A DNA stretch of 41,286 bases from Nemertoderma westbladi (GCA_032718475.1 JAUCBJ010007498.1:1-41286), one strand, 5' to 3'. Positions 6,701 through 30,023 are shown, numbered from the stretch's first letter. The notes: generated by a model from the letters alone, not told the origin. Program-made: numbers and translations.

Positions 6701-9518
6701 ATAAGCTACATGCTACAATAGACTGTTAATATCGACATTTAACCGTTATTTAACTACACCATATGACGGAATTAGTGCATGCAATAAGGCACAACTTTAA
6801 TGGAATTAAATTAAATCAAAACAAAACAAATCTAAATCAAACGAAAAAAACATCCGCTCCAGCTGGCTTTGCCCCCCCCCCCCCCCCCCCTCCAAGGCAC
6901 CCTTTGCTAACTAAAGGTCGCCTTACCCCCCTCCCCCTCCCGCCACTCCAACATCAATTTACTTCAACTAACAGCCAGACTGGAAAACTGGCCCCAGAGA
7001 AGAAATTTCCACCCCACATCCAATGCTAGATTGTATTTCCGCGGAATGGAGCGCACTTTTGGTTGATGCTATCTTCTCACCGGGAAGATAGCATGAGGAG
7101 AGTGTTAGCGGATCCATCCGTTGCACGCCACCTACCGAGAGAATAGGGAATAGAGTGATTTACGAATCACACCAAGGTATCCAATATCCTATATAATATT
7201 GGATTCAAAGGAATATTATGAGGCAATGTGGTGCTAGCTGGGAGATGGTTAATAACTCATATCTTTGAAGAAGCTAGCATAGGGCCAAAGGGAACAAGAA
7301 ATGAAAGGGGGAGAAAACCAACCAATAGCGGGGCAGCACATGGCCAGTAACGCGTATCTATTGGTAGGTCGACATGTAGGTAGAAATGTGTAATAAGTTT
7401 TCTAAGCAATCTGTATAAATCCATTACCCAATATTAATTGCGTTCAGTTGGCTATTAATTACTGTGGAAGTCACCCGTGTGCTACATACAGATTTTGCTG
7501 TTGTTTACCGGTACTTATATATATATCAGCTATTATTAACAACGATGAACCATTAACTCTTATATTCAAACCGGCCTTTCAACAACAACAAACAGGCGAC
7601 GCGTACTAAACACGACATAAACACACCAGTCGGGCGGGATCGCACATCTGTATCAATCAATAATCAACCATGCTTGTGCGCCTGTACTTAATGTATATTG
7701 GTAATGCAGGCTGTTGAGCTTCGTGCAAACATTATTTTGTATATGGCGTATATGTATATTATTCTGCATACAAGAAATCGATAATGTACATACATACATT
7801 GTGTGAATGCGTTTGTGAAAACAATCTCCGCTATAGCTGTAGTATTTAATCCTCCCGTTTGTCCCCTTACTTATGAGTATTCTTAGCTCTATGTAATAAA
7901 GCAACGCCACTCCAACAACTCCACGTGTATGTTTCATTCGAAGATTTGCACGAGTTGTTATAAAGTACATTATTACCCTGCCTAGGGGACGAAATATCAC
8001 ATTATAGTTGTACCCTACATTTAGTAACCTAGTGCGTGATATAGTCTATACAATAGCTAGGCGATCAACTGTAAAATTAAACTGAACTTGAAACTTTAAA
8101 GCAGGCAAATCCCGTTAATTTAAATACTAAGCTAACAGCAACTGGACGCTGTACAGTAAGTGTAAAAGCTAAAATTATAAAAAAAAGCGATGAAACTATT
8201 TATTATTATGTCCAAACTTTTTCTACTTTGATTGATGCTATATTAATTCCTATAACGAAATTTTAAAAGTTCCATCAAAAGTTGTTTTTTTCCACAGGGT
8301 CAAGTATTGCACACATTATTTTAACAATTTTTTTAAGACTTATCAAAACTTCCACACCATGGTTCAATGGTTCCTCAATGAACATTTTCATTTTAATATG
8401 GTCATACAGTAGCTAGATAAGATGATTCATGTCAGTAGCACTATACTGTATCAGCTATGGCACAAGATTCCTAACTATTTTAGTCTACCGGCCAACTCCG
8501 AAAATAAAGGTTCGAATGGCATTTTTTGTTAATGGTTGACATCCACATCATTTTTGTGTAACCACATCTGTATTATTGATCTAGTGTCTTTTTAAAACTT
8601 AATCTGCTCCAAATAAGGGCCCTTGACTGCGCGATTAGACTCGATTTGACACCATATTACCCTTTCCCAAGATGGTACCGGTATACGTTGTGTGATTTTT
8701 TGTGTTTTTGAATTTTAAATCATTTTGATGATTTTCTCACAAAACGCAAAGCAAACAAAACAATTGAAAATTTAAATTAAATTTAAATTTAAAAAATTAA
8801 ATTTAAATTTAAATTCAATTCAATTTGTTGGGGCTGTTACTAGGACCGGGTTGGCGGACTGGAAAAAGATATCGTAAACTTTATTTCTTCCAAAATGTTT
8901 ATAACAGTTTCAGGAAAACATTGATGCATCGGAAGACTTAGTCTTCGCGCTACCAGACCTAGCGAATCTACCTTGCCATTCCATGATTGGTCTTTTATTG
9001 TTGCACAGCACAGTGTGACAATGAACTATACACTACCGCTGATTAACAGACCGTTGTCACTGACCAAACAGACCTGGCCATACTGCCTTCACAAAGGTAG
9101 TTGTCAGGTCACAAAGGAAACAGCTGCAGAAACCGTTCCGGTTTCTGACACAGGAACAGAAAATATGATGAACCCAGGACTGACCACTACACTGATACAC
9201 TGAGACGGGCAAGGAAATGCTGTAAACAGATATACTCATCGGTAATATCTCCTTGGTCGAAGGCAATACTGCTGAAAAGATCATTAAGACCAATAGTGCC
9301 AGTGAGGTGTAGACCCCCCCCCCCCCCCCCCCCATTGAGTGTTTGGATCTCATTGATCCTATCATCATAGACATGTATAGAGCAAACAAATTGAGTCCCA
9401 CGCGAAATGAATAAGTTGGTCACAGTTCCAAAGAAGTGCAACCTAACACTCTTTGGATATATAAAATTATATTAAAACTAACTGCTGATGTAGACATTAA
9501 ATTGTGGATGTGGCACTT

Positions 9519-9754
9519 AACCAGTTTCGGACCCCACACCCGTTTGTTCTAGAACAAACATAACCAGTTTCGGACCCCACAACCGTTAGTTCTAGAACAA
9601 AATATAACCAGTATCGGACACCACATCCGTTAGTTCTAGAACAAAATATGAACAGTTTCGGACCCCACACCCGTTTGTTCTAGAACAAAATATAACCAGT
9701 TTCGGACCCTACATCCGTTAGTTCTAGTCCAATCCAGTTCTAGTTCTAGAACAA
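9519..9754. repeat. Minisatellite, 43-44 bp x5, with GTTCTAGAAC palindrome
   Basis: AACCAGTTTCGGACCCCACACCCGTTTGTTCTAGAACAAAATAT units start at about 9519, 9562, 9606, 9650 and 9694; the fifth is interrupted. Confidence 0.92.
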
Positions 9755-10431
9755 TTTAAAAAAAAATAAATAGATAAAATGTTGTAGATCATTTTCAAAA
9801 AAGTAACGTTTCAGCATGAATACTATAAAGGGACTAGCCGCAGGGCGTATCTCTCTCTACCTTGCACCCTCGGTGACACATATGTATACTATAGGTTGGT
9901 AGAGTATTAGTAAAAAATTAATAGTTAATAAATTAATATAGTTTGCTATTGCGTGTAATAAATAAAAACTAAAAAATATTGATTAAAATATTGTATCGCA
10001 CACAAGTTGTGTAGAGAAAATATAATGAAACAGATACAGTACATGAAATATAAAGCGTGGCACATTGAAGGTTATTTTCCTCGCGCAAATAGCTAGTAGC
10101 TTCGCGGCCAGTAGCTACCGGTTTCGCGGCAAGTAGCCAGAACCAAAGGTCCAGTAGCTAGTGGCCGCGGTTATACCTATTGGCGATGAGACAGTAGCTA
10201 ATAGATCGAAGCTCGAAGCTTCTAGCTATAATGCATCATGGAAACCGGAAATAAAATTATATGCTAAATAACAACTCATTGCATTAATTAAGCTAACTAT
10301 TATTCAATTTAGAACACTGACTTAGCTATCTATGTTAATATTAACATCTTGTTATCAACATTTTAGAATCATAATAATAATATTTGCCAATAATTGCCGG
10401 ATTCGATAGCTTGCTTACACTTCCAGTTAAG

Positions 10432-10476
10432 ATGAATATTCTTTATCTCTCTGTGTCGATAATTGCCGTGATCGTC
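10432..10476 (+). CDS. First coding exon (signal peptide) of a small putative GPI-anchored or secreted protein
   Basis: ATG at 10432 gives MNILYLSVSIIAVIV, followed by donor GTGAGA at 10477. Phase-0 splicing to the acceptor at 17288 gives MNILYLSVSIIAVIV-PAGAYA|VQM, a signal peptide with an A-X-A cleavage site. An acceptor-like CTTACACTTCCAG ends at 10426. Confidence 0.55.
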
Positions 10477-10836
10477 GTGAGAATATGGTGTATTTATTAA
10501 AAATAATCTCCACCGGATTCATCAACTCTACTTCAGTATACTAAATTTTGACCCTTTACAACGAATGTTACTATAAGCAGATAAGGAACCTTAATATGAT
10601 ATAGGCATATTATAATGATGATAATAGTAAACTTTTAACTAAAATAATTGTGACTTAGAGGAAGTTGGGGAATTTATCCTGTATATAATAGTGTGTGAAA
10701 GACACACATACAGACTGCCTAAACCCATCCGTCAAACAGACTGCGGACTGCAAACTGCCTGCATAGCGGAAAGGAGTATATACCGGACCGCGAGCGGCGC
10801 GATAACTGTGTGAACTGCGCATCACGGCCAGATGAC

Positions 10837-13800
10837 ATGGCGCCAGTACAGCACTCACCAAAACACGAACCCCAACCACTCCCGCACCAGCGCCTGGCTG
10901 GAGGCAGCCCTTCGCCTACCCCACCTGACAGTCACATGTCTGACCCTCTGAATCAGATGACGCCAAATGAAGAAACCGAACCTGACTCTCTCGCAATGGA
11001 GGAAAATACGGGTCACAACAGACTGATGGGTTCGAGTATGCCCCCCATAAACACACAAACTGACACTACCAGTATAAATACAAAAAAAAACAAAAAATTA
11101 AAGTCATCAACCAACACTCCAAAAAAACATGAACATACAAAACAAAACACCTCAACTTTGGAACCAAAAGAGAAGTCAAAAAAAAAGAATTTATCCAACA
11201 CACACAGTAACAAAATTAATGTAACCTTCTCTACCACCAGCGATACTCTAAACGACATTAGCATATCTGAAATAGAGGAGTCAATGGGCTTTTTTGCCGA
11301 TTCTTCAAAAAACCTATCATCAACGCAGAATGCGCCAACAGCTGAAATCGTCAAAGCCATAACAAAACCAAAGAGAACCAATCCTAGAACCCTAATCCCC
11401 CCCCTACCTAGAGAAATACACCTAATAAAAATACCTGATCCTACTTCACGAGAGAAAACAATCACAACTAGAGGGGATAAAGAATTATATATCAGTGACC
11501 ATATAATAGAATATTTCTTTGGAATATTGGAGATACAGTTTTCACACACCATAACCATCCCCATTGAATTAAGTAAAAAGCTACACCAAAAGGAGTGGGA
11601 TATTTCAGCTGCCCTTAGACATATCACAAGTTCCTGGGATCCAACGACTCAGCAAAACTCAATCATACTCATACCAGACATCGACGATGAACATAAACAT
11701 TTCACACTTCATGTAGCAGATCCAACAAAAAAAATAGTATATACCCTAGATCCCTTGGACGACAATCCAACATCGTCAATTGCTGCCACAATAACCAATT
11801 TATTCAACCTCATACATAAAGTGAAAAACCCTAATAATCTGCAAGAATCACCATGGATCACAAAGCAAAACACGAGACAATACCCGGGACAAAAAAACGG
11901 TTATGACTGTGGGATATACATTTGTCTCTATGGCTTAGCCCTAGCTCAGAAATCTTCATCAATAAGAGAAGACCATGAAAATAGTCCAGAGATCCGTGCA
12001 TGGTTCAAGAGATCTGTAGAAGACTGTCGCATTGAAATAACCGCAACACAACAAGAACCAACCTTCTCAATAGACCCTAACTTGAACAACCTGAATCTAC
12101 TAATGAATGCATCAACAACTGAAGAAATAATGTCTATAATACGTGCTGAAAAACTAATAAACAACCCCAAAGACATTTTCATTAAGACATTGATTCCCTT
12201 GGGATCTGGAACACTAAATAGATTGCAAAAAATTCTGCTAGACCACATAAAACTCTACATTTTAGGAAATAATCCCAGTCTTAGTATAACCGCGGTCAAT
12301 AGACGTTCCATGGAAGAATTATCCACAGATGTGGCTGAGTTTGCTCTCGCTATAGAGAATAATACCATCTCTCAATCGTTTAAAAAGCGTGTAAATTTAG
12401 ATACAATGGATTGTTTCAGCATACTTCAACTGACAGACCTTGTTGCAAATCTACAGCTTGAGGTGAAATCCCTTTCTGGAGCTCATAATGCTGCAATCGA
12501 AACCATTCACCTGCTACAGAACTCAATCACAAATATGACCCTAGAAATAAATGACCTGCAGAAATCAGTAGCATCCGGAACAAAACAACAAAATAAAGCA
12601 GCAAAGAGGCGAACAAAAAAGGAGAAAAAACGGAAGCGCAAACAGAAAAACCAACAGACAAATATTAATAATACTGAAACCTCAATCCAAGACAGCGATG
12701 AATCGCAGGATGAGTCCCAAAGCATCTCAGACTCAGATGACTATGATAGTGATAATTCTACTCCCACCCCGACCCCGACTGATAGCAACGGGGCGAGTTG
12801 CCCAGCCTCCGAAAGTGATGATACCTTTCAAACATGGGATCAGATTGAAACTCCAGAAAAGGAACTTCTTGAAGTCGATATTGATACTGCAAACCTTGTC
12901 TACAATGGACACATTTCAGAATCGAAACCAACTGTAGTCAGACCAAGAACGCTGGAGGAAGTGACATATAATCCAAATGCCTGGACATCTGTACATCATT
13001 CAAATGGGAGGCCTAGCTCTAAACAACAAACAACAAAAGAAACAGCAATACCAATTAGCAACTTATTCAGTAATCTGGATCATGATTCCAAAATAGCAAT
13101 GCTACTTGAGAGACAAAATGTAATCCTACAAAACATAGAGAAGAGCAATAAAAAAGAACACATTCCGACTACAAACCCAGAAGTAACTAAAAAGAAAACA
13201 GACTTGAAAAATAATGAACAAGTGCAAACAATACTAGTGTCAGGTTTACCAAAAAATACAGGATCGGTCAGCCTCTCTCAATTTTGTTACAAACAAACTG
13301 GAATATATCCGGTCCACGTTTGGGTTAGAGGCAATAAAGGAGAAATCAAAGAAGCCATAATAACAGTGCAGCCAGCTGACTACCACATCTTTATAAACAA
13401 CCATATGTGGCCTGGAGACAACCCAACAACATGCAATTACCATAGAAATAGACAAGACAGAAACCGACAAACTACAACTCATAACCCGTATAGTAACAAC
13501 GAACATGACCTTAAAGATAATCATGAGGGAACCAACCACAAAAACTACCAAAGACAATCATATGCTTGGAGCAACAAATCACAATGTCAATCGTGGAAAC
13601 CAACAGACAACTACGGATACAGAGAATCACGAAACAAACCAACAGACAACTACAGATATACATCACACAATTATAGGGGACACAGGGGTAACCTGCTGAA
13701 CAACAACAAACAAAACTCCCGGAACTATTATTGCGATGGAAGCCAATATGACCACAGAGACAAACAACCAGCCTGGAAAGATGGGAACAGAACTCAACGA

Positions 13801-13914
13801 GAAATAAATATTAATGCTTCCGATGAGCAACAAACTATGAACAATGGTTTCATCAACTCTGGGAACTATCGGAAAGAACGGTCCCACACAAGGGACTACA
13901 ATCGGTATTTTTAA
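10837..13914 (+). CDS. LINE ORF1 protein (1025 aa): disordered N-terminus, peptidase C48/Ulp1-like domain, coiled coil, basic NLS-like tract, acidic tract, RRM-like domain, N/R/Y-rich tail
   Basis: First ATG in good context (GACATGG) at 10837; the track start at 10810 is a GTG. Motifs: YISDHIIEYFF, ILIPDIDDEHKHFTLHVAD, VYTLDPL, PGQKNGYDCGIYIC. Heptad region about 12430-12570, KRRTKKEKKRKRKQK, and TILVSGLP...MWPG at 13228-13420. Confidence 0.9.
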   Translation: MAPVQHSPKHEPQPLPHQRLAGGSPSPTPPDSHMSDPLNQMTPNEETEPDSLAMEENTGHNRLMGSSMPPINTQTDTTSINTKKNKKLKSSTNTPKKHEHTKQNTSTLEPKEKSKKKNLSNTHSNKINVTFSTTSDTLNDISISEIEESMGFFADSSKNLSSTQNAPTAEIVKAITKPKRTNPRTLIPPLPREIHLIKIPDPTSREKTITTRGDKELYISDHIIEYFFGILEIQFSHTITIPIELSKKLHQKEWDISAALRHITSSWDPTTQQNSIILIPDIDDEHKHFTLHVADPTKKIVYTLDPLDDNPTSSIAATITNLFNLIHKVKNPNNLQESPWITKQNTRQYPGQKNGYDCGIYICLYGLALAQKSSSIREDHENSPEIRAWFKRSVEDCRIEITATQQEPTFSIDPNLNNLNLLMNASTTEEIMSIIRAEKLINNPKDIFIKTLIPLGSGTLNRLQKILLDHIKLYILGNNPSLSITAVNRRSMEELSTDVAEFALAIENNTISQSFKKRVNLDTMDCFSILQLTDLVANLQLEVKSLSGAHNAAIETIHLLQNSITNMTLEINDLQKSVASGTKQQNKAAKRRTKKEKKRKRKQKNQQTNINNTETSIQDSDESQDESQSISDSDDYDSDNSTPTPTPTDSNGASCPASESDDTFQTWDQIETPEKELLEVDIDTANLVYNGHISESKPTVVRPRTLEEVTYNPNAWTSVHHSNGRPSSKQQTTKETAIPISNLFSNLDHDSKIAMLLERQNVILQNIEKSNKKEHIPTTNPEVTKKKTDLKNNEQVQTILVSGLPKNTGSVSLSQFCYKQTGIYPVHVWVRGNKGEIKEAIITVQPADYHIFINNHMWPGDNPTTCNYHRNRQDRNRQTTTHNPYSNNEHDLKDNHEGTNHKNYQRQSYAWSNKSQCQSWKPTDNYGYRESRNKPTDNYRYTSHNYRGHRGNLLNNNKQNSRNYYCDGSQYDHRDKQPAWKDGNRTQREININASDEQQTMNNGFINSGNYRKERSHTRDYNRYF

Positions 13915-16900
13915 AACAAACAAAGCAAGCATCTTTATACCTCCGGCAACCACATGTAATACTGAAGCAAAAGTAAACTCTGACCCTGATAGAAACTTTC
14001 ATACAAACCCATTAGGTTTGAACATCATAACATTTAACTGCCAAGGCTACACAAGAAATAAAAAGTACATTTACTCCCTCCTACATAATGAAGACCCACA
14101 CATTCTGGTACTACAAGAGCATTGGCTCAGCTGTAGAGAAGCTCAGTTCAACTTTAACAAAAAAAACCTACCAGCCGGCTACACCTGTTATACCTTTTCT
14201 GTAGCCGAAGGAATGAAGTCAAATAAAAAACGAGTACGTGGAGAAGGTGGTCTAGCCTTCCTAATTAAAGATGATATCTGCACATACTGTTCATCTGTTA
14301 CCACTACCTCTGACCGACTGATTGCGATGACAATTGATGATCACTTCCACTGCAATATCACTATCATAGGAACATATATGCCCTTTGATAATAAATCAAA
14401 CTACTCACGAACCAACTATTTAGAGGAATGCGGAAAGCTTACATCAATAATTGATGATTTAATACAAAATGGAAATGAAATAATCATAGCCGGAGACATA
14501 AATGGTGATATAACCCACAACGAAGACCATAATGAAGAAAATAAAAGATCTACCTTTGGAACAATTTTTCACACACAAATTGTCGGTCCCTATAAATTAC
14601 AAGCCTTTTCAAGCACACACTCCAAAACAACAGGCGGAAACGCAACCTATTTTTTCAAATCAAGAACAGGAATCACAATAAGAAGCTCCCTAATAGATCA
14701 TATAATATCCTCAGAAAACATTACTAATTGTTTAGAAGAACGCCATATCTTCCAACAAAACGATGATAACATTTCTGATCATACACCTGTCTCCTGCAAC
14801 TTCAACATTCCTCAAATGGAGCACAAACAAAAATTACAAAACAAACCGGCGTGGAGGAATACTAGACCTCGCTTCTTTCTATTTAAAGAAGCAACAACAG
14901 AACAGAAAGAAGCCTATAGAAAATCTGTTAATGACGAGCTACTGAGCTTTAGCAAAATCTTGCTTAACGATGATGGTGTTTCGTACTCAACAAACAAATT
15001 GCTACCAGAAGAGATGGTTAAAAAGATTAACCATACAATACTACAATCTGCCAAACACCACATCCCGTCCATAATACCCAAAAAATTGAAACGCTGGAAG
15101 AACCATGGAAACAATGGCAAGACACTCCCAACTCGGTCTACTATATCACTGAAATCTCTAGAAATGATAAAAATTAAACGAACTTCCAACAACAACTTAA
15201 CGTTGAAAGACGCCTCCCTTCAGAGACTACAAGAGGGTCGTATAAGAGCCAAATTAGCACATAGAGCATACCATGAACATATTTTGAGTCTCGCCCAAAC
15301 ATGTGCAAACGACACAGACAAATTCTGGAACAAACTCAAACGTGAGGAAACCAATCATACTACCATCACAGAAGCGAATGCGAATAAACTCTATACCCAC
15401 TATAAAGATTTCTTTGAGACAGACAGTAGTGATAAAAATAGCCACCAACAAACCACCAACGACGAAACTCAAGTCGACGGGGAAAACCTAGAAAGTAGTC
15501 CAACTAGTGAGCTCTTCAATGCCAAACTCTTTACAATCCAAGACATAAAGACTGCAATAGAATCACTTAATAAGGGAAAGGCGTCCGATTTTGCTAACAT
15601 AACAACAGAGCACCTAATTAATGCATCATCAAATACTATGTGTAAATATATTGCTTTCCTTTTCAACAGCATGACCCATTGTGGAGTCTTTCCGGACAAC
15701 CTATGTGCGAGTCTCTTACTACCACACATCAAGAATGCTACTAGAAAGAAAAACGATACAACAAATTACAGAGGAATTTCAATCTCATCAATCTTCGTCA
15801 AGCTGTGGGAAATTGTAGTTCTGAGCGAATTCACTCGAGAAGCAACTAGCCATCTCCAAATGGCATACAAGAAAGGAATCAATGGAGAAATCCCCTACAT
15901 GGTAGCCAATAAACTAATTAAGCGTTTTAATGCAGGTGGCTCAGACGTCCACGTGCTCTCAATAGACTTATCTGCGGCTTTCGACTGCGTAAACCACAAA
16001 TCTCTCTTTAGTAAGCTTAGGGAAACAAATATCGATAAACCCTGGTTACAACTACTCGAATCACTCTACAAAAAATCTACAGCTTATGTAAGAACAGGAC
16101 GACGTTTATACACACAATCAATCAAACTATCCAAAGGCGTAAGACAAGGGGGAGTATTATCTGCCTGGCTCTTTAATTTTTATCTAAAAGAATTATTCGT
16201 CAACATAGAATCATTAGGATTAGGTATACACATCAACAAGCACTCCTACCCTATAATTGGGTATGCAGATGACATACTGCTTCTAGCAAACCTAAAGAGC
16301 GATCTACAGAAGTTAACAACAGTCTGTACTACCTACTTCTCTGCACATGGCCTAAAAGCGAACCCAACAAAATCCCATTATGTTATCTGCTCACCAACAA
16401 CAAAGACAACCACTAAACAAACCCTGAAAGTTGGTCACACTACCCTAGAACACGAAAATAGTTGTCGATACCTAGGACTGCCCTTCCCCTTAACTCAGGA
16501 CAGCCTAAAAGACAACTTCGTCAAAAGGTGCTGGTGGAATGTGGCGCGATTAAAGAACCGGGGGTTATCAACTTCTGATGTGCCCCTGATAGTTACGAAG
16601 ACCATATGGAAAACCATTTGCACCCCATCAATCCTATATGGAACAGCAAATTACACAGATGCTATCACCAACGATTTTGAAGTCTTTTTTCGAAAGGCTA
16701 TGAGATCAATATTAGGTGTCAAAAACTACGTATCAAACAATACCCTGTACCTTCTCCTAGGACAAGAAACCCTATCATCCCTAGTGGCATACAACAAATG
16801 TAGGATCATATACAGTGCTTTCAACTCTCGCAATCCAAAAATAATATACCTCTTCGCCTGGCTTCTAGCGCAGCATAGCCTTAATATATATAAAGACCCC

Positions 16901-17152
16901 CTATTTGATGACTACAACGCTGCGTCGTGGATTTACGGACTACCATGCATAACCAGCCTAGTAACGGCATCCTACAGCACCAAACATACCATAAAGAATG
17001 CGAAAGAACGCAACAAGCCAACAGCCAAATATAAGGACATTTTCAATGCGCTGTTTTTAAATAGTATCCTAAACAACATCAACTCAGAAAACCACGTAAG
17101 GCATGAATGTATCCTTGATTTTTATGGAATCGAAAAATCAACCACACAATAA
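13844..17152 (+). CDS. LINE ORF2 protein: apurinic-like endonuclease plus reverse transcriptase (1102 aa)
   Basis: APE motifs: IITFNCQG, LVLQEHWL, GGLAFLIK, GTYMP, IAGDING, IDHII, ISDHTPV. RT motifs: NYRGISISS, DLSAAFDCVNH, GVRQGGVLS, YADD (16262-16273), GLKANPTKS, RYLG. Confidence 0.96.
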   Translation: MVSSTLGTIGKNGPTQGTTIGIFKTNKASIFIPPATTCNTEAKVNSDPDRNFHTNPLGLNIITFNCQGYTRNKKYIYSLLHNEDPHILVLQEHWLSCREAQFNFNKKNLPAGYTCYTFSVAEGMKSNKKRVRGEGGLAFLIKDDICTYCSSVTTTSDRLIAMTIDDHFHCNITIIGTYMPFDNKSNYSRTNYLEECGKLTSIIDDLIQNGNEIIIAGDINGDITHNEDHNEENKRSTFGTIFHTQIVGPYKLQAFSSTHSKTTGGNATYFFKSRTGITIRSSLIDHIISSENITNCLEERHIFQQNDDNISDHTPVSCNFNIPQMEHKQKLQNKPAWRNTRPRFFLFKEATTEQKEAYRKSVNDELLSFSKILLNDDGVSYSTNKLLPEEMVKKINHTILQSAKHHIPSIIPKKLKRWKNHGNNGKTLPTRSTISLKSLEMIKIKRTSNNNLTLKDASLQRLQEGRIRAKLAHRAYHEHILSLAQTCANDTDKFWNKLKREETNHTTITEANANKLYTHYKDFFETDSSDKNSHQQTTNDETQVDGENLESSPTSELFNAKLFTIQDIKTAIESLNKGKASDFANITTEHLINASSNTMCKYIAFLFNSMTHCGVFPDNLCASLLLPHIKNATRKKNDTTNYRGISISSIFVKLWEIVVLSEFTREATSHLQMAYKKGINGEIPYMVANKLIKRFNAGGSDVHVLSIDLSAAFDCVNHKSLFSKLRETNIDKPWLQLLESLYKKSTAYVRTGRRLYTQSIKLSKGVRQGGVLSAWLFNFYLKELFVNIESLGLGIHINKHSYPIIGYADDILLLANLKSDLQKLTTVCTTYFSAHGLKANPTKSHYVICSPTTKTTTKQTLKVGHTTLEHENSCRYLGLPFPLTQDSLKDNFVKRCWWNVARLKNRGLSTSDVPLIVTKTIWKTICTPSILYGTANYTDAITNDFEVFFRKAMRSILGVKNYVSNNTLYLLLGQETLSSLVAYNKCRIIYSAFNSRNPKIIYLFAWLLAQHSLNIYKDPLFDDYNAASWIYGLPCITSLVTASYSTKHTIKNAKERNKPTAKYKDIFNALFLNSILNNINSENHVRHECILDFYGIEKSTTQ

Positions 17153-17213
17153 TAACTCATGACTAGGTACACACAGAGCTAACTATCACCATGGTGTCTT
17201 TGAGTGACCTGAC

Positions 17214-17270
17214 TTTTATTGATTTATTGTTTTATTGATTTACTGATTTATTGATTTATTTTTTGATTAT
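17214..17270 (+). repeat. LINE 3' microsatellite tail (TTTATTGA)n
   Basis: About 7 degenerate copies of TTTATTGA directly after the 3' UTR. Confidence 0.85.
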
Positions 17271-17288
17271 TGACCGTTTTAATTATAG

Positions 17289-17599
17289 CCTGCCGGGGCG
17301 TATGCCGTGCAAATGAATGAATGATCGGAGGCACTATCGCAGAGGATTGGGATATGCTTTACAACAAGGGGTTGATATCAGAGGAGTTCTACAACGCAGC
17401 CAAAGAAAAGAGAGTGACCGGGGAGTTATGCGACAGCATGGCAGAAGAATTCGCGCAGGGGGACGCGAAGATTGAGGAAAAGATTGCCAAAGAATGCAGG
17501 GAGGATGCAAAGAAAGATGGGGTGTTCAGTGCAGCGCCAATTACCCCCATTGCTAAATCTCTGATCATCCTTGCCATTATTACCATTGGACTATTCTAG
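17289..17599 (+). CDS. Last coding exon of the small putative GPI-anchored protein; contains a 1-nt frameshift near 17320 (pseudogenised allele or assembly error)
   Basis: Acceptor TTTTAATTATAG at 17288. The exon reads PAGAYAVQMNE* in the spliced frame; the 92-aa ORF from 17321 is in another frame and ends DGVFSAAPITPIAKSLIILAIITIGLF* (small residues, then a terminal hydrophobic tail). Composition is coding-like and purine-rich. Confidence 0.55.
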
Positions 17600-17969: not shown

Positions 17970-19150
17970 CTAGGTCGTGCGAACTCGGACAGTGGAAATG
18001 AGATCCTTCCAGGCTTCCCGATTCTCCATAGTTGTCGCAATTTCGTTTCTCCCAAGTTCAGTATCCCTTTCAAGTTGATCTATATATGTTATGGCCGCTC
18101 GTCCACGAGTACGCTTTCCAGGAGTTGGTTGCCAGAAAAGTAGATCTGGTATGACCTCGTCTTTACTTCCCCAGCAGTGCCCACTGAATCTTAATCTGCG
18201 TTCACTGAGGGTGGTTACAGGTGGTATTGTACCATAGAGCTCGGCGTGTTGTCTCCAGCTGATGTTTAGGGCTGCCCTTAGTAGTCTTGTGCAGCAACCA
18301 TCAATTCGGTTTTCAAGTGATTTAGTCAGTGTCCAGGTCTCACCCCCGTATAAAAATACACATTCCACTGTGGCTCGAATGAACTTAGTCTTCAGGTGCC
18401 TGGAGAGATCTGATTTCCAGATGGTATCCATTTTTGATGGAGCTACCCAAGCCTTTGCTTTCCTAACTTCTATGTCTTTTTTGCTACTCTCTATCCATGA
18501 TCCAAGGTACTGGAAGTCATCGACCTTCCTTAGTTGATTATTATCAATGGTTGTCAAGTTACCATTTACATTACAAGTCATGAATTCGGTCTTGGTAGCA
18601 TTTATATGCAATCCAACCTCCTTAGCAGCCCTCTCCACTTTATTCAGTAGAAGTTGTGCATCTGCTAGCGTATTAGAGAGCAGGGCGATGTCATCCGCAA
18701 AGTCGGTCTCTGTGACTGTAGTTGCCGGATATCTACTACTTCTGCGTTCTTGTAGTATGAATCCCAGATCTTTACCCTTTGTAGCCAACCTCATTGCGTA
18801 ATCCAGTACAATTACAAACAGTAATGGTGCTAATGTGTCACCTTGCAGTACGCCAGCCGGGATTGAGAAGAACTCAGTTACACTATTTGGTGAGAGTACC
18901 AGCGCTTCTGTGTCACAATATAACAATCCAATGCCAGCGACAATTACCTCTGGTATTCCATAAGCTCTTAGGATTTCAAGCATTTTACCTCTATGGATGG
19001 AGTCGAATGCCTTCTTGAAGTCCACAAAAGTCATGACTGCGGGGAGATTCTTTGACTTAATTCCCTCAATCAGTCTCCGAAGCGCAAGTATCTGAGCTTC
19101 GTTGATCTATTTGGGCGAAATCCGTTTTGACTCTTACACAGCAGTTTCTA
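17970..19150 (-). pseudogene. RTE reverse transcriptase, C-terminal part
   Basis: 354-aa ORF 17970-19034, plus an upstream frameshifted SQNGFRPNRST / QILALRRLIEG. Confidence 0.88.
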
Positions 19151-19151
19151 T

Positions 19152-19793
19152 ATTTCGGCCAATTTGAGCATTCAGGTCACCAGCAATGACTTTGACGTTT
19201 TGTGTCGGAATGTCCTCTTTATAAGTCCTGTCAGATCTTCATAAAACTTGACTGCTTGTTCTGGCTCTGAGGCATTGGTTGTACTGTAGCAACATATAAC
19301 TGTTGCCTTGGGATTCCACTCTAATGCTGCAACCATGAGCATGAGCAGTGGAATTTATAGATTCGATGCTGTTTAGGGTCTGAAGTGCAAATGGGTTTAG
19401 CAGAATTCCTACTCCACCAATTGATGCATTGGGCGGATATCGTACTGCTGAGCTTGTTACTAACGTCCAGCCATTTCCAATGTCATTGTACTTCATGGCA
19501 GTATTTTCATGACAAATCCGATGTTCTTGGATACAGATGATGTCGATGTTATATTCCATTGCCAGAGCGACTATGTCACCCTGTTTGTTATGTGCTTTCA
19601 GCGTGCATGCGTTCATTGTGGCAATATTTTGTGTCTTTTTACATTTCAACAGGTTGGTTCTTCTTTCTTCTCTGTCTTTTGTTCCAGTAGCCGATTTTTC
19701 GACCCTAGTCTGGTGTACCACTGAGGGTCGCGGTCCTTGTTGACCCGGGCGACGACCGAGCCGGTATTTCTCCTGGAGGGTTCTCATGCTCAT
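19152..19793 (-). pseudogene. RTE APE endonuclease, N-terminal half
   Basis: ORF 19239-19793 has APE motifs and continues through frameshifts to KVIAGDLNAQIGR at about 19155-19193. Confidence 0.85.
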
Positions 19794-20527
19794 ATCTTTC
19801 AGTTGCGAGAGTAAACCGCTTGTGGTCGCAACTCTTACAAGCGTCTTCGCAGTAGGTCGCCGTTGGTTGATTACCTTCCGCCGACCTTGTCAGCATGTCT
19901 AGCCGTTGGTTGATTACCTTCCGCCTATCCATGGCCTACAGCCCTGCTGCTGACTCTAGGGGACCTTTTGTTACACCCTGAACCAAGTGTGCCTCATGGG
20001 TTAGGATACCTAACATTGGTAAAGGAGCATCCAGTATAGACTGAGGGGCATTGCAGATGTATGCTCAAGCCTTTGCCTTCAATGGTGCCCTAGGCGCTAT
20101 AGCCCTCAATGACTTATTTAGGTGATGGGGCTAACCAACCCACTCTTGATCAACTAAATAATGAATATGCTATGCTTATCGGGCCTGCCCTACTGGGCTG
20201 ACAGCTACAGGTAGTACCACATTACTGCCATACATAGTGGTAGCAGGATCTGGGGACCCTGACCTGACACTATTTAATTAGCTAATTCTAAGGAATCACC
20301 ATTAAATACCCAAACCAGTCATTTTGCGAAATAAACAATAAGCAAGCTGTCTTATTATCGTAGTCTGTCTCCTTTTGATGCTTGTTCTATAGATGTAATT
20401 ACCCCCCCCCCCCCCCCTGCCCCTCCCCCACTTTCTAAATGTACGATGTCACCATTATTCCATTACAATTTACAGAGTCTCACTTCCCTATCTTTACTAT
20501 TGACCTTATTACTTTTATTATTTATTG

Positions 20528-23500
20528 CAGTCTGTTGCTGTTCATATATTATGTTACCATACTTCACACAGGTCTAGTCCCCCAGTCTGTTGCTGTTCAT
20601 ATATTATGTTACCATACTTCACACAGGTCTAGTCCCCCAGTCTGTTGCTGTTCATATATTATGTTACCATACTTCACACAGGTCTAGTCCCCCAGTCTGT
20701 TGCTGTTCATATATTATGTTACCATACTTCACACAGGTCTAGTCCCCCAGTCTGTTGCTGTTCATATATTATCTTACCATACTTCACACAGGTCTAGTCC
20801 CCCAGTCTGTTGCTGTTCATATAATATGTTACCATACTTCACACAGGTCTAGTCCCCCAGTCTGTTGCTGTTCATATAATATGTTACCATACTTCACACA
20901 GGTCTAGTCCCCCAGTCTGTTGCTGTTCATATATTATGTTACCATACTTCACACAGGTCTAGTCCCCCAGTCTGTTGCTGTTCATATATTATCTTACCAT
21001 ACTTCACACAGGTCTAGTCCCCCAGTCTGTTGCTGTTCATATATTATGTTACCATACTTCACACAGGTCTAGTCCCCCAGTCTGTTGCTGTTCATATATT
21101 ATCTTACCATACTTCACACAGGTCTAGTCCCCCAGTCTGTTGCTGTTCATATAATATGTTACCATACTTCACACAGGTCTAGTCCCCCAGTCTGTTGCTG
21201 TTCATATAATATGTTACCATACTTCACACAGGTCTAGTCCCCCAGTCTGTTGCTGTTCATATATTATGTTACCATACTTCACACAGGTCTAGTTCCCCAG
21301 TCTGTTGCTGTTCATATATTATGTTACCATACTTCACACAGGTCTAGTCTCCCAGTCTGTTGCTGTTCATATATTATGTTACCATACTTCACACAGGTCT
21401 AGTCTCCCAGTCTGTTGCTGTTCATATATTATGTTACCATACTTCACACAGGTCTAGTCCCCCAGTCTGTTGCTGTTCATATATTATGTTACCATACTTC
21501 ACACAGGTCTAGTCCCCCAGTCTGTTGCTCTTCACACAGGTCTAGTCCCCCAGTCTGTTGCTGTTCATATATTATGTTACCATACTTCACACAGGTCTAG
21601 TCCCCAAGTCTGTTGCTGTTCATATATTATGTTACCATACTTCACACAGGTCTAGTCCCCCAGTCTGTTGCTGTTCATATATTATGTTACCATACTTCAC
21701 ACAGGTCTAGTCCCCCAGTCTGTTGCTGTTCACACAGGTCTAGTCCCCCAGTCTGTTGCTGTTCATATATTATGTTACCATACTTCACACAGGTCTAGTC
21801 TCCCAGTCTGTTGCTGTTCATATATTATGTTACCATACTTCACACAGGTCTAGTCCCCCAGTCTGTTGCTGTTCATATATTATGTTACCATACTTCACAC
21901 AGGTCTAGTCTCCCAGTCTGTTGCTGTTCATATATTATGTTACCATACTTCACACAGGTCTAGTCCCCCAGTCTGTTGCTGTTCATATATTATGTTACCA
22001 TACTTCACACAGGTCTAGTCCCCCAGTCTGTTGCTGTTCATATATTATGTTACCATACTTCACACAGGTCTAGTCCCCCAGTCTGTTGCTCTTCATATAT
22101 TATGTTACCATACTTCACACAGGTCTAGTCCCCCAGTCTGTTGCTGTTCATATAATATGTTACCATACTTCACACAGGTCTAGTCCCCCAGTCTGTTGCT
22201 GTTCATATATTATGTTACCATACTTCACACAGGTCTAGTCCCCCAGTCTGTTGCTGTTCATATATTATGTTACCATACTTCACACAGGTCTAGTCCCCCA
22301 GTCTGTTGCTGTTCATATATTATGTTACCATACTTCACACAGGTCTAGTCCCCCAGTCTGTTGCTCTTCACACAGGTCTAGTCCCCCAGTCTGTTGCTCT
22401 TCACACAGGTCTAGTCCCCCAGTCTGTTGCTGTTCATATATTATGTTACCATACTTCACACAGGTCTAGTCCCCCAGTCTGTTGCTGTTCATATATTATG
22501 TTACCATACTTCACACAGGTCTAGTCCCCCAGTCTGTTGCTATTCACACAGGTCTAGTCCCCCAGTCTGTTGCTGTTCATATATTATGTTACCATACTTC
22601 ACACAGGTCTAGTCCCCCAGTCTGTTGCTGTTCATATATTATGTTACCATACTTCACACAGGTCTAGTCCCCCAGTCTGTTGCTGTTCACACAGGTCTAG
22701 TCCCCCAGTCTGTTGCTATTCACACAGGTCTAGTCCCCCAGTCTGTTGCTGTTCATATATTATGTTACCATACTTCACACAGGTCTAGTCCCCCAGTCTG
22801 TTGCTGTTCATATATTATGTTACCATACTTCACACAGGTCTAGTCCCCCAGTCTGTTGCTGTTCATATATTATGTTACCATACTTCACACAGGTCTAGTC
22901 CCCCAGTCTGTTGCTGTTCATATATTATGTTACCATACTTCACACAGGTCTAGTCCCCCAGTCTGTTGCTGTTCATATATTATGTTACCATACTTCACAC
23001 AGGTCTAGTCCCCCAGTCTGTTGCTGTTCATATATTATGTTACCATACTTCACACAGGTCTAGTCCCCCAGTCTGTTGCTGTTCATATATTATGTTACCA
23101 TACTTCACACAGGTCTAGTCCCCCAGTCTGTTGCTGTTCATATATTATGTTACCATACTTCACACAGGTCTAGTCCCCCAGTCTGTTGCTGTTCTTATAT
23201 TATGTTACCATACTTCACACAGGTCTAGTCCCCCAGTCTGTTGCTGTTCATATATTATGTTACCATACTTCACACAGGTCTAGTCCCCCAGTCTGTTGCT
23301 GTTCATATATTATGTTACCATACTTCACACAGGTCTAGTCCCCCAGTCTGTTGCTGTTCATATATTATGTTACCATACTTCACACAGGTCTAGTCCCCCA
23401 GTCTGTTGCTGTTCATATATTATGTTACCATACTTCACACAGGTCTAGTCCCCCAGTCTGTTGCTGTTCATATATTATGTTACCATACTTCACACAGGTC

Positions 23501-26500
23501 TAGTCCCCCAGTCTGTTGCTGTTCATATATTATGTTACCATACTTCACACAGGTCTAGTCTCCCAGTCTGTTGCTGTTCATATATTATGTTACCATACTT
23601 CACACAGGTCTAGTCTCCCAGTCTGTTGCTGTTCATATATTATGTTACCATACTTCACACAGGTCTAGTCCCCCAGTCTGTTGCTGTTCATATATTATGT
23701 TACCATACTTCACACAGGTCTAGTCCCCCAGTCTGTTGCTGTTCATATATTATGTTACCATACTTCACACAGGTCTAGTCCCCCAGTCTGTTGCTCTTCA
23801 CACAGGTCTAGTCCCCCAGTCTGTTGCTGTTCATATATTATGTTACCATACTTCACACAGGTCTAGTCTCCCAGTCTGTTGCTGTTCATATATTATGTTA
23901 CCATACTTCACACAGGTCTAGTCCCCCAGTCTGTTGCTGTTCATATATTATGTTACCATACTTCACACAGGTCTAGTCTCCCAGTCTGTTGCTGTTCATA
24001 TATTATGTTACCATACTTCACACAGGTCTAGTCCCCCAGTCTGTTGCTGTTCATATATTATGTTACCATACTTCACACAGGTCTAGTCCCCCAGTCTGTT
24101 GCTGTTCATATATTATGTTACCATACTTCACACAGGTCTAGTCCCCCAGTCTGTTGCTGTTCATATATTATGTTACCATACTTCACACAGGTCTAGTCCC
24201 CCAGTCTGTTGCTCTTCACACAGGTCTAGTCCCCCAGTCTGTTGCTGTTCATATATTATGTTACCATACTTCACACAGGTCTAGTCTCCCAGTCTGTTGC
24301 TGTTCATATATTATGTTACCATACTTCACACAGGTCTAGTCCCCCAGTCTGTTGCTGTTCATATATTATGTTACCATACTTCACACAGGTCTAGTCTCCC
24401 AGTCTGTTGCTGTTCATATATTATGTTACCATACTTCACACAGGTCTAGTCCCCCAGTCTGTTGCTGTTCATATATTATGTTACCATACTTCACACAGGT
24501 CTAGTCCCCCAGTCTGTTGCTGTTCATATATTATGTTACCATACTTCACACAGGTCTAGTCCCCCAGTCTGTTGCTGTTCATATATTATGTTACCATACT
24601 TCACACAGGTCTAGTCCCCCAGTCTGTTGCTCTTCACACAGGTCTAGTCCCCCAGTCTGTTGCTGTTCATATATTATGTTACCATACTTCACACAGGTCT
24701 AGTCTCCCAGTCTGTTGCTGTTCATATATTATGTTACCATACTTCACACAGGTCTAGTCCCCCAGTCTGTTGCTGTTCATATATTATGTTACCATACTTC
24801 ACACAGGTCTAGTCTCCCAGTCTGTTGCTGTTCATATATTATGTTACCATACTTCACACAGGTCTAGTCCCCCAGTCTGTTGCTGTTCATATATTATGTT
24901 ACCATACTTCACACAGGTCTAGTCCCCCAGTCTGTTGCTGTTCATATATTATGTTACCATACTTCACACAGGTCTAGTCCCCCAGTCTGTTGCTGTTCAT
25001 ATATTATGTTACCATACTTCACACAGGTCTAGTCCCCCAGTCTGTTGCTCTTCACACAGGTCTAGTCCCCCAGTCTGTTGCTGTTCATATATTATGTTAC
25101 CATACTTCACACAGGTCTAGTCCCCCAGTCTGTTGCTGTTCATATATTATGTTACCATACTTCACACAGGTCTAGTCCCCCAGTCTGTTGCTGTTCATAT
25201 ATTATGTTACCATACTTCACACAGGTCTAGTCCCCCAGTCTGTTGCTGTTCATATATTATGTTACCATACTTCACACAGGTCTAGTCCCCCAGTCTGTTG
25301 CTGTTCATATATTATGTTACCATACTTCACACAGGTCTAGTCCCCCAGTCTGTTGCTCTTCACACAGGTCTAGTCCCCCAGTCTGTTGCTGTTCATATAT
25401 TATGTTACCATACTTCACACAGGTCTAGTCCCCCAGTCTGTTGCTGTTCATATATTATGTTACCATACTTCACACAGGTCTAGTCCCCCAGTCTGTTGCT
25501 GTTCATATATTATGTTACCATACTTCACACAGGTCTAGTCCCCCAGTCTGTTGCTGTTCATATATTATGTTACCATACTTCACACAGGTCTAGTCCCCCA
25601 GTCTGTTGCTATTCACACAGGTCTAGTCCCCCAGTCTGTTGCTGTTCATATATTATGTTACCATACTTCACACAGGTCTAGTCCCCCAGTCTGTTGCTGT
25701 TCATATATTATGTTACCATACTTCACACAGGTCTAGTCCCCCAGTCTGTTGCTGTTCATATATTATGTTACCATACTTCACACAGGTCTAGTCCCCCAGT
25801 CTGTTGCTGTTCATATATTATGTTACCATACTTCACACAGGTCTAGTCCCCCAGTCTGTTGCTCTTCACACAGGTCTAGTCCCCCAGTCTGTTGCTCTTC
25901 ACACAGGTCTAGTCCCCCAGTCTGTTGCTGTTCATATATTATGTTACCATACTTCACACAGGTCTAGTCCCCCAGTCTGTTGCTGTTCATATATTATGTT
26001 ACCATACTTCACACAGGTCTAGTCCCCCAGTCTGTTGCTATTCACACAGGTCTAGTCCCCCAGTCTGTTGCTGTTCATATATTATGTTACCATACTTCAC
26101 ACAGGTCTAGTCCCCCAGTCTGTTGCTGTTCATATATTATGTTACCATACTTCACACAGGTCTAGTCCCCCAGTCTGTTGCTGTTCATATATTATGTTAC
26201 CATACTTCACACAGGTCTAGTCCCCCAGTCTGTTGCTATTCACACAGGTCTAGTCCCCCAGTCTGTTGCTGTTCATATATTATGTTACCATACTTCACAC
26301 AGGTCTAGTCCCCCAGTCTGTTGCTGTTCATATATTATGTTACCATACTTCACACAGGTCTAGTCCCCCAGTCTGTTGCTGTTCATATATTATGTTACCA
26401 TACTTCACACAGGTCTAGTCCCCCAGTCTGTTGCTGTTCATATATTATGTTACCATACTTCACACAGGTCTAGTCCCCCAGTCTGTTGCTGTTCATATAT

Positions 26501-29500
26501 TATGTTACCATACTTCACACAGGTCTAGTCCCCCAGTCTGTTGCTGTTCATATATTATGTTACCATACTTCACACAGGTCTAGTCCCCCAGTCTGTTGCT
26601 GTTCATATATTATGTTACCATACTTCACACAGGTCTAGTCCCCCAGTCTGTTGCTGTTCATATATTATGTTACCATACTTCACACAGGTCTAGTCCCCCA
26701 GTCTGTTGCTGTTCATATATTATGTTACCATACTTCACACAGGTCTAGTCCCCCAGTCTGTTGCTGTTCATATATTATGTTACCATACTTCACACAGGTC
26801 TAGTCCCCCAGTCTGTTGCTGTTCATATATTATGTTACCATACTTCACACAGGTCTAGTCCCCCAGTCTGTTGCTGTTCATATATTATGTTACCATACTT
26901 CACACAGGTCTAGTCCCCCAGTCTGTTGCTGTTCATATATTATGTTACCATACTTCACACAGGTCTAGTCCCCCAGTCTGTTGCTGTTCATATATTATGT
27001 TACCATACTTCACACAGGTCTAGTCCCCCAGTCTGTTGCTGTTCATATATTATGTTACCATACTTCACACAGGTCTAGTCCCCCAGTCTGTTGCTGTTCA
27101 TATATTATGTTACCATACTTCACACAGGTCTAGTCCCCCAGTCTGTTGCTGTTCATATATTATGTTACCATACTTCACACAGGTCTAGTCCCCCAGTCTG
27201 TTGCTGTTCATATATTATGTTACCATACTTCACACAGGTCTAGTCCCCCAGTCTGTTGCTGTTCATATATTATGTTACCATACTTCACACAGGTCTAGTC
27301 CCCCAGTCTGTTGCTGTTCATATATTATGTTACCATACTTCACACAGGTCTAGTCCCCCAGTCTGTTGCTGTTCATATATTATGTTACCATACTTCACAC
27401 AGGTCTAGTCCCCCAGTCTGTTGCTGTTCATATATTATGTTACCATACTTCACACAGGTCTAGTCCCCCAGTCTGTTGCTGTTCATATATTATGTTACCA
27501 TACTTCACACAGGTCTAGTCCCCCAGTCTGTTGCTGTTCATATATTATGTTACCATACTTCACACAGGTCTAGTCCCCCAGTCTGTTGCTGTTCATATAT
27601 TATGTTACCATACTTCACACAGGTCTAGTCCCCCAGTCTGTTGCTGTTCATATATTATGTTACCATACTTCACACAGGTCTAGTCCCCCAGTCTGTTGCT
27701 GTTCATATATTATGTTACCATACTTCACACAGGTCTAGTCCCCCAGTCTGTTGCTGTTCATATATTATGTTACCATACTTCACACAGGTCTAGTCCCCCA
27801 GTCTGTTGCTGTTCATATATTATGTTACCATACTTCACACAGGTCTAGTCCCCCAGTCTGTTGCTGTTCATATATTATGTTACCATACTTCACACAGGTC
27901 TAGTCCCCCAGTCTGTTGCTGTTCATATATTATGTTACCATACTTCACACAGGTCTAGTCCCCCAGTCTGTTGCTGTTCATATATTATGTTACCATACTT
28001 CACACAGGTCTAGTCCCCCAGTCTGTTGCTGTTCATATATTATGTTACCATACTTCACACAGGTCTAGTCCCCCAGTCTGTTGCTGTTCATATATTATGT
28101 TACCATACTTCACACAGGTCTAGTCCCCCAGTCTGTTGCTGTTCATATATTATGTTACCATACTTCACACAGGTCTAGTCCCCCAGTCTGTTGCTGTTCA
28201 TATATTATGTTACCATACTTCACACAGGTCTAGTCCCCCAGTCTGTTGCTCTTCACACAGGTCTAGTCCCCCAGTCTGTTGCTGTTCATATATTATGTTA
28301 CCATACTTCACACAGGTCTAGTCCCCCAGTCTGTTGCTGTTCATATATTATGTTACCATACTTCACACAGGTCTAGTCCCCCAGTCTGTTGCTGTTCATA
28401 TATTATGTTACCATACTTCACACAGGTCTAGTCCCCCAGTCTGTTGCTGTTCATATATTATGTTACCATACTTCACACAGGTCTAGTCCCCCAGTCTGTT
28501 GCTGTTCATATATTATGTTACCATACTTCACACAGGTCTAGTCCCCCAGTCTGTTGCTGTTCATATATTATGTTACCATACTTCACACAGGTCTAGTCCC
28601 CCAGTCTGTTGCTGTTCATATATTATGTTACCATACTTCACACAGGTCTAGTCCCCCAGTCTGTTGCTGTTCATATATTATGTTACCATACTTCACACAG
28701 GTCTAGTCCCCCAGTCTGTTGCTGTTCATATATTATGTTACCATACTTCACACAGGTCTAGTCCCCCAGTCTGTTGCTGTTCATATATTATGTTACCATA
28801 CTTCACACAGGTCTAGTCCCCCAGTCTGTTGCTGTTCATATATTATGTTACCATACTTCACACAGGTCTAGTCCCCCAGTCTGTTGCTGTTCATATATTA
28901 TGTTACCATACTTCACACAGGTCTAGTCCCCCAGTCTGTTGCTGTTCATATATTATGTTACCATACTTCACACAGGTCTAGTCCCCCAGTCTGTTGCTGT
29001 TCATATATTATGTTACCATACTTCACACAGGTCTAGTCCCCCAGTCTGTTGCTGTTCATATATTATGTTACCATACTTCACACAGGTCTAGTCCCCCAGT
29101 CTGTTGCTGTTCATATATTATGTTACCATACTTCACACAGGTCTAGTCCCCCAGTCTGTTGCTGTTCATATATTATGTTACCATACTTCACACAGGTCTA
29201 GTCCCCCAGTCTGTTGCTGTTCATATATTATGTTACCATACTTCACACAGGTCTAGTCCCCCAGTCTGTTGCTGTTCATATATTATGTTACCATACTTCA
29301 CACAGGTCTAGTCCCCCAGTCTGTTGCTCTTCACACAGGTCTAGTCCCCCAGTCTGTTGCTGTTCATATATTATGTTACCATACTTCACACAGGTCTAGT
29401 CCCCCAGTCTGTTGCTGTTCATATATTATGTTACCATACTTCACACAGGTCTAGTCCCCCAGTCTGTTGCTGTTCATATATTATGTTACCATACTTCACA

Positions 29501-30023
29501 CAGGTCTAGTCCCCCAGTCTGTTGCTGTTCATATATTATGTTACCATACTTCACACAGGTCTAGTCCCCCAGTCTGTTGCTGTTCATATATTATGTTACC
29601 ATACTTCACACAGGTCTAGTCCCCCAGTCTGTTGCTGTTCATATATTATGTTACCATACTTCACACAGGTCTAGTCCCCCAGTCTGTTGCTCTTCACACA
29701 GGTCTAGTCCCCGTCTGTTGCTGTTCATATATTATGTTACCATACTTCACACAGGTCTAGTCCCCCAGTCTGTTGCTGTTCATATATTATGTTACCATAC
29801 TTCAAACAGGTCTAGCCCCCCAGTCTGTTGCTGTTCATATATTATGTTACCATACTTCACACAGGTCTAGTCCCCCAGTCTGTTGCTGTTCATATATTAT
29901 GTTACCATACTTCACACAGGTCTAGTCCCCCAGTCTGTTGCTCTTCACACAGGTCTAGTCCCCCAGTCTGTTGCTCTTCACACAGGTCTAGTCCCCCAGT
30001 CTGTTGCTGTTCATATATTATGT
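20528..30023. repeat. 55-bp satellite array 1 (about 175 monomers) with interspersed 33-bp deletion monomers
   Basis: Monomer TCTGTTGCTGTTCATATATTATGTTACCATACTTCACACAGGTCTAGTCCCCCAG, near-perfect head-to-tail, with no unique spacers. Confidence 0.99.

Follow-up and report, generated by a model that had tools for sequence, protein, structure and literature searches.

The locus described here raises the question of whether ORF1 of an APE-type LINE from Nemertoderma westbladi contains an intact Ulp1/SENP-type (C48) protease domain and, if so, what a retrotransposon might gain from it. The DNA analyzed is a stretch of 41,286 nucleotides (GCA_032718475.1 JAUCBJ010007498.1:1-41286), called the window below, and all positions are counted from its first letter.

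Two open frames in the window, 10723-13914 (1063 codons) and 13841-17152 (1103 codons), belong to a full-length two-ORF APE-type LINE of 6.85 kb at 10475-17321 on the plus strand. Pfam searches of ORF2 returned an APE endonuclease (E = 2.5e-12) preceding a reverse transcriptase (E = 2.2e-28), and the start of ORF2 overlaps the end of ORF1 in another frame. The element and its insertion site are arranged as follows.

10432-10474, plus strand: 5' half of an interrupted small host ORF; hydrophobic and signal-peptide-like
10469-10474, plus strand: left target-site duplication of 6 bp, with letters identical to 17322-17327; an X4 contig has its junction at 10474
10475-17321, plus strand: full-length LINE, defined by ORFs, domains, junction and duplication
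10475-10836, plus strand: putative 5' UTR, between the junction and the earliest ATG in the ORF1 frame
10837-13914, plus strand: ORF1, 1025 aa, translated from the ATG at 10837
13844-17152, plus strand: ORF2, with the APE endonuclease at about 14027-14782 and the reverse transcriptase at about 15746-16483
17153-17321, plus strand: 3' UTR with a short tetranucleotide tandem tail, read from the sequence
17322-17327, plus strand: right target-site duplication, matching 10469-10474
17328-17596, plus strand: remaining 3' half of this host ORF (88 codons), with a hydrophobic C-terminus

Contigs of four runs (X1-X4) were compared with the window over 10000-17200. They represent at most three samples from three studies, and one of the runs may be the source of the window itself. 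A contig of X4 departs from the window at 10474 and resumes with letters like those from 17328 onward, and contigs of X1 and X2 likewise end at 10474. The flanks 10432-10474 and 17328-17596 read as two halves of one ORF of about 103 codons. Together, the X4 junction, the 6-bp duplication and the flanks forming one ORF define the element as 10475-17321 and its target as one copy of a small host gene. Uninterrupted relatives of the host site are present in the runs, with 10-11 other letters and six gaps; one of these occurs at high depth in X4. The 3' half of the host ORF matched no Pfam family, and the interrupted ORF, as read from its sequence, possibly encodes a membrane-anchored surface protein. 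The 3' tail of the element consists of three AATG units, the last of which runs into the duplication, and no stable hairpin was found at the 3' end (z = 0.95).

The window contains further repeats. A second APE-RT LINE, broken and in the opposite orientation, lies at 17970-19889 on the minus strand (reverse transcriptase E = 3e-22) and is presumably RTE-like, judging by its motifs. Frameshifted fragments of a third LINE ORF2 were found at 39507-40967 (reverse transcriptase E = 6e-11). A 55-bp satellite with 33-bp variants forms long arrays at 20528-30023 and 34478-36121, which are partly very homogeneous (98-99% matches), and a 44-bp tandem array lies at 9512-9761. A short repeat element rich in an AGTAGCT motif, at 10065-10248, showed contigs of high depth with numerous loose ends. 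An open frame of 231 codons at 2-694 on the minus strand runs off the window and had no Pfam match.

The preliminary description had located a Ulp1/SENP-type domain in ORF1, with catalytic codons at 11698, 11749, 11890 and 11908. The Pfam Peptidase_C48 profile (PF02902), which it had proposed as a check, matched ORF1 at aa 253-373 with 25.9 bits (E = 1e-5), and the excised domain scored 30.4 bits (E = 4.4e-7), against a curated cut-off of 20.7 bits. By phmmer, yeast Ulp1 (1euv_A) was the top match among 12 in the PDB (E = 8.6e-7). In this alignment, to which a Ulp1 numbering offset of 400 was applied, His288, Asp305, Gln352 and Cys358 pair with Ulp1 H514, D531, Q574 and C580; the four codons lie in the ORF1 frame as claimed, and the residues follow the Ulp1 order. 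Q574 of Ulp1 serves in the oxyanion hole.

11452-12036, plus strand: Ulp1/SENP-type C48 protease domain, aa ~206-400, from Pfam, PDB sequence match, homologue search and fold
11698-11700, plus strand: catalytic His288 (Ulp1 H514), from the PDB alignment; invariant in 21 of 21 alignment rows
11749-11751, plus strand: catalytic Asp305 (Ulp1 D531), from the PDB alignment; D in 20 of 21 rows
11890-11892, plus strand: Gln352 (Ulp1 Q574), from the PDB alignment; Q in 20 of 21 rows
11908-11910, plus strand: catalytic Cys358 (Ulp1 C580), from the PDB alignment; invariant in 21 of 21 rows

The presence in ORF1 of a complete C48 domain with all four catalytic residues is confirmed. A search of 1.84 billion protein representatives gave 17 matches, all on the C48 domain, with 24-40% identity, and Pfam C48 was found in all 17; a full-length homologue of ORF1 was found in none of the representatives. 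A separate search with ORF1 aa 200-620 gave no matches among 5209 candidates of near length. Several of the matched proteins form a C48 family (P0004-P0006, P0009, P0010, P0013, P0016, P0017 and P0020), one of which has a hAT dimerisation domain, and P0019 combines C48 with PHD. From their sequences, this family and P0019 look transposon-associated.

The contigs of the four runs also bear on the age of the element and on selection upon it. The element is about 99% identical in contigs of all four runs. The whole C48 domain, with flanks on both sides, is contained in a single contig in each of X1 (11107-13017), X2 (11117-12542) and X4 (11177-13017), with five, six and two other letters, respectively. 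None of these falls in a catalytic codon; the listed pieces of X3 cover three of the four catalytic codons. Among the 40 differences listed of 72, those in ORF1 were silent in 9 of 12 cases, against 21-27% expected (p = 1e-4 to 7e-4), and those in ORF2 in 6 of 13 (p = 0.04-0.12). At least four differences lie inside the C48 domain, two silent and two conservative, which are too few for a domain-level estimate of selection. Because the ends and the duplication enclose it, identity across runs is about 99% and ORF1 shows a silent excess, the C48 domain is taken to travel with a young, selected element.

Loose contig ends within the element were found before 15296 (X1 and X2), 11035 (X3) and 17122 (X4), together with two internal skips. 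In X2, contig depth rises from 5' to 3' (162, 176, 188, 197, 236, 272, 315), against a depth of 10.7 for a flank contig. These observations fit a multi-copy family with 5'-truncated members, as a matter of consistency and not of count, since depth is not copy number. At a further loose end in X4, before 14958, the letters look like a template-switch cDNA adapter. As this run is listed as DNA by guess, this is a weak hint that X4 may be a cDNA library containing the ORF1 region.

Relatives of ORF2 were collected as 84 loci: 80 metagenome stretches, the best of 405 confirmed ones, and four viral-collection contigs. ORF2 has no close relative among the matches (27-35% identity), and in a quick 86-row tree without named references it sits on a long branch (1.88; best identity 34%). 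From its motifs, we assume that the element has an affinity to the RTE group (RTEX/Proto2-like). For 40 loci an upstream ORF was chosen by eye (median 354 aa), with 25 of the 40 frames stop-bounded upstream. Searched with a C48 profile, the 1421 frames of the 84 loci gave no match at E up to 1, while C48 proteins kept out of the profile are recovered by it at E = 1e-44 or better, and Pfam C48 was found in none of the 40 related ORF1s. The relatives thus transpose without a C48 domain. The related ORF2s (L001-L080) pair with at least two types of ORF1 C-terminus: a conserved domain ending in Trp-Pro was present in 33 of 40, and another type in L027, L051 and L055. Neither type has a Pfam family. 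Judged from these sequences, ORF1 modules are apparently swapped within this group of related ORF2s.

ORF1 runs from a low-complexity N-terminus through the C48 domain, a further region, a coiled coil, basic and acidic stretches and an RRM-like domain to an N/R/Y-rich tail. The features downstream of the protease are as follows.

12421-12567, plus strand: predicted coiled coil, aa 529-577, from a heptad scan
12592-12672, plus strand: basic stretch with 48% K+R, aa 586-612, followed by an acidic stretch
13228-13413, plus strand: RRM-like domain ending in Trp-Pro, aa 798-859; weak profile match to related ORF1s

A coiled coil and an RRM had both been ascribed to ORF1. The first was borne out by the heptad pattern at aa 529-577, where L, I, V or M occupies 10 of 12 a/d positions in the best 42-residue windows. 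The second is plausible from the sequence. The segment aa 798-859 is colinear with the C-terminal domain profile of related ORF1s, from which one row with an unrelated Trp-Pro was left out, yet the match is weak (2.7 bits, equalled by 3 of 1000 local shuffles, with an hhalign probability of 10%) and nothing was found for the RRM-like region in Pfam or the PDB. An Atlas search of the region gave a best score of 0.87, which is a lead only, and a sub-threshold RRM_1 match was seen in one of 40 related ORF1s. The basic stretch is a possible nuclear import or RNA-binding signal, as suggested by its composition. No match to ORF1 aa 401-520 was obtained with a profile of the N-terminal domain built from 28 of the 40 related ORF1s.

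To model the protease, AlphaFold2 was run on the C48 domain with the 21-row alignment. The model had a pLDDT of 79.8 and was confident across the core; single-sequence prediction gave 31.7. The Ulp1/SENP fold anticipated for the domain was recovered, with a Foldseek match to Ulp1 at E = 7e-10 and TM = 0.65. TM scores were 0.61-0.67 against Ulp1 and SENP1/2/5, 0.54-0.55 against SENP7/Ulp2, 0.49-0.51 against SENP8/NEDP1, 0.40-0.50 against bacterial CE enzymes and 0.42-0.47 against poxvirus I7L, a ranking that is not independent evidence of substrate because the alignment behind the model is itself SENP1-like. Identity to the closest structures, yeast Ulp1 and human SENP1/2/5, is about 20%. A PDB search with the N-terminal half of the domain found no SENP. 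In a search of viral folds, phaeovirus Ulp1-like proteins ranked first (TM = 0.53-0.66, 16-21% identity), with no sign of a specific viral donor.

The substrate-side residues give a mixed picture. Ulp1 D451, E455 and R489, which have SUMO-contact roles, align to D221, E225 and R261 of ORF1. The two tryptophans with which Ulp1 and the SENPs clamp di-Gly are both replaced by other aromatic residues: W448 corresponds to Tyr218, and W515 to Phe289, where 17 of the 20 other alignment rows have Trp. Ulp1 F474 aligns to Glu244, and aa 238-253 contain no Phe, Tyr or Trp, so the hydrophobic residue expected at F474 in SUMO-specific Ulp1/SENP1-type proteases is missing. According to passages of PMC4822132, Ulp1 needs F474, this residue is changed in ChlaDUBs and SENP8, and the Ubl preference of C48 enzymes is hard to predict from fold.

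With a little under even confidence, we favor the reading in which ORF1p carries a SUMO isopeptidase that would act for the element against SUMO-dependent host restriction or silencing. Activity is argued from a triad that is intact despite the low identity to the closest structures, inside an ORF under purifying selection. SUMO is suggested as the substrate because it is the default of the nearest folds and because the D451, E455 and R489 positions are matched; the exchange of F474 for Glu with no aromatic nearby, and of W515 for Phe, weakens this choice. In the proposed sequence of events, an ancestor of this LINE lineage would have captured a C48 domain. ORF1p would use the coiled coil and the RRM-like domain to assemble on its own RNA, and the basic stretch would carry it into the nucleus. 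The C48 domain, if catalytically active on SUMO, would remove this tag from restriction or silencing factors of the host in the vicinity of the element's RNP or a new insertion, and relief of SUMO-dependent silencing would be the benefit to the element. Since fusion to ORF1p would bring the enzyme to the element's own RNA and new insertion, this benefit would be gained in cis.

Parts of the literature provide a setting for this proposal. In Drosophila, SUMO is described as needed at several steps of piRNA-guided transcriptional silencing (passages of 10.1101/2022.08.15.504007), and transposon-encoded counter-silencing enzymes of other kinds exist (part of PMC12730594). In Drosophila S2 cells, Ulp1 knockdown led to higher R1/R2 expression, as stated in a portion of PMC7676866; deSUMOylation therefore need not favor an element. 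If SUMO is indeed removed from silencing factors, the domain would represent a retrotransposon-encoded counter-defense against a conserved step of piRNA/heterochromatin silencing.

The loss of the F474 equivalent and the W515-to-Phe exchange would equally suit an active ubiquitin or NEDD8 isopeptidase, or a promiscuous one, which might protect ORF1p and ORF2p from degradation or tune cullin ligases and insertion-site DNA repair. According to passages of PMC4822132, ubiquitin or NEDD8 is the substrate of C48 enzymes that do not belong to the SENP1 group, and parts of PMC2836005 and PMC8557442 record OTU or Josephin deubiquitinase domains in other elements. Both sequence and fold rankings, however, place Ulp1 and SENP1/2/5 above SENP8 and the bacterial DUBs, and we consider this explanation unlikely.

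The domain might instead serve to bind SUMO or another Ubl, with little or no activity, or be a recent passenger that has yet to decay. Its identity of only 24-40% to any C48 protein, the altered substrate-side residues, the small number of differences within it and the relatives without C48 are all compatible with this. Nevertheless, the four catalytic residues have been retained despite the divergence, and the core of the model is confident. The silent-site composition of the domain is also like that of ORF2 (p = 0.89), although this test does not separate the domain from the other LINEs of the window either. A binding module or passenger is rather unlikely on balance.

A self-processing role, in which the domain would mature ORF1p or ORF2p in the manner of CE-clan viral proteases acting on precursors, is very unlikely. 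Within the same group, the proteinase of adenovirus does cut virion precursors (a passage of PMC4822132). ORF1 contains one Gly-Gly, at aa 22-23 after Leu-Ala, but 1.06 would be expected by chance, and a cut there would free only 23 residues. The Leu-Ala-Gly-Gly context presumably fits an adenoviral cleavage site. Scans of ORF1 for Gly-Gly and for SUMO sites were at chance level, the fold is nearer to the SENPs than to poxvirus I7L, and the two ORFs, being in different frames, form no polyprotein. As for a host SENP fragment or DNA-transposon remnant joined to a single LINE copy by chance fusion or misassembly, the failure to find a full-length ORF1 homologue would be in keeping with it, but artefactual joining is largely refuted by the single intron-less open frame of 1063 codons, the contigs of three studies that span the domain and its flanks, and the element ends and duplication that enclose it, which leaves this explanation extremely improbable.

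One of the 17 C48 homologues bears on whether a C48 domain may have been captured by an ORF1 more than once. P0014 is a protein of 456 aa on a 4242-base ENA contig, with a C-terminal C48 domain and an intact triad. Its N-terminal part matches a profile built from three ORF1s of another type at related loci (24.2 bits; E = 2.7e-7 in a set of 148 proteins), and the best of 1000 shuffles scored 5.5. The protease shares 33% identity over 94 aa with the C48 domain of ORF1. A homologue search with P0014 returned four matches, namely itself and three C48-only proteins, and among metagenome contigs 228 pattern matches to its locus yielded no confirmed one. The location of C48 at the opposite end of the protein suggests an independent fusion, and P0014 may thus be a lead to a second capture of C48 by a LINE-ORF1-like protein. 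The broader proposal, that a live SUMO protease was joined independently at least twice to the RNA-packaging protein of two-ORF APE LINEs (N-terminally in the element, and C-terminally to a different ORF1 type in P0014) and is used as an RNP-delivered anti-silencing enzyme, is unlikely as a whole.

The architecture was compared with what has been catalogued. The accessory domains described in ORF1 of APE LINEs comprise PHD, esterase, RRM and zinc knuckle, a list to which a protease would now be added. The main text of PMC4120745 does not contain protease, ulp, peptidase or SUMO, and its three supplements do not contain C48, ulp1, peptidase, protease or SUMO. In the portions of PMC5203782 covered, the main text likewise lacks protease, ulp, peptidase and SUMO, and one supplement lacks C48, ulp1, peptidase and OTU as a whole word. 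Nothing relevant occurs in the covered parts of PMC6548132, PMC9017028 and 10.64898/2026.09.24.754024. No APE-LINE ORF1 with C48 was found in the portion of the full-text literature covered; since Repbase Reports, Dfam and subscription journals lie outside this coverage, we hold with moderate confidence that the architecture is probably uncatalogued. An opossum RTE family reportedly has an OTU domain, which, if right, would lower the novelty.

Among known systems, Ulp1 domains are reported in the non-LTR retrotransposons NeSL and Utopia-1_TSP, which are site-specific and encode a single protein with zinc fingers, a reverse transcriptase and a restriction-like endonuclease (passages of PMC4640811). 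In contrast, the protease of the present element is encoded, together with a coiled coil, by a separate ORF1, and the endonuclease of ORF2 is APE; two ORFs and this endonuclease rule out membership in NeSL/Utopia. Ulp1 or OTU domains are also reported in Ginger1 and Mutator DNA transposons, which resemble the element in carrying PF02902 with a function that is proposed only (parts of PMC2836005). Unlike the element, these are DDE cut-and-paste transposons with neither a reverse transcriptase nor an ORF1p. Membership was rejected, as ORF1 and ORF2 matched no transposase family at E up to 1.

Dualen/RandI elements have one long ORF and both endonucleases. A Josephin-like protease is reported in them (a passage of PMC8557442, citing Kojima and Fujiwara 2005), which makes them non-LTR elements with a cysteine protease of the Ubl pathway, although of a different family. 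The SGNH esterase ORF1p of CR1/L2/RTEX also places an enzyme with a preserved active site beside a coiled coil, but it is concerned with esterase activity and lipid binding and not with a Ubl protease (part of PMC3905857). Yeast Ulp1 and human SENP1/2/5 share with the domain the fold, the His-Asp-Cys triad with its Gln and the D451/E455/R489 positions; the domain differs from them in overall sequence, in the W448, W515 and F474 positions, and in being embedded in a retrotransposon protein. Observations of Ulp1 domains in Mutator, Ginger and NeSL/Utopia go back two decades, and their role is a matter of proposals in the parts of the literature covered. In the present case the domain belongs to a separable ORF1 in a LINE that is intact and was apparently mobile in recent times, which makes it possible to test directly what such domains do. 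The capture of Ubl proteases by transposons is a recurring theme, and the element is one more case, in a young APE LINE.
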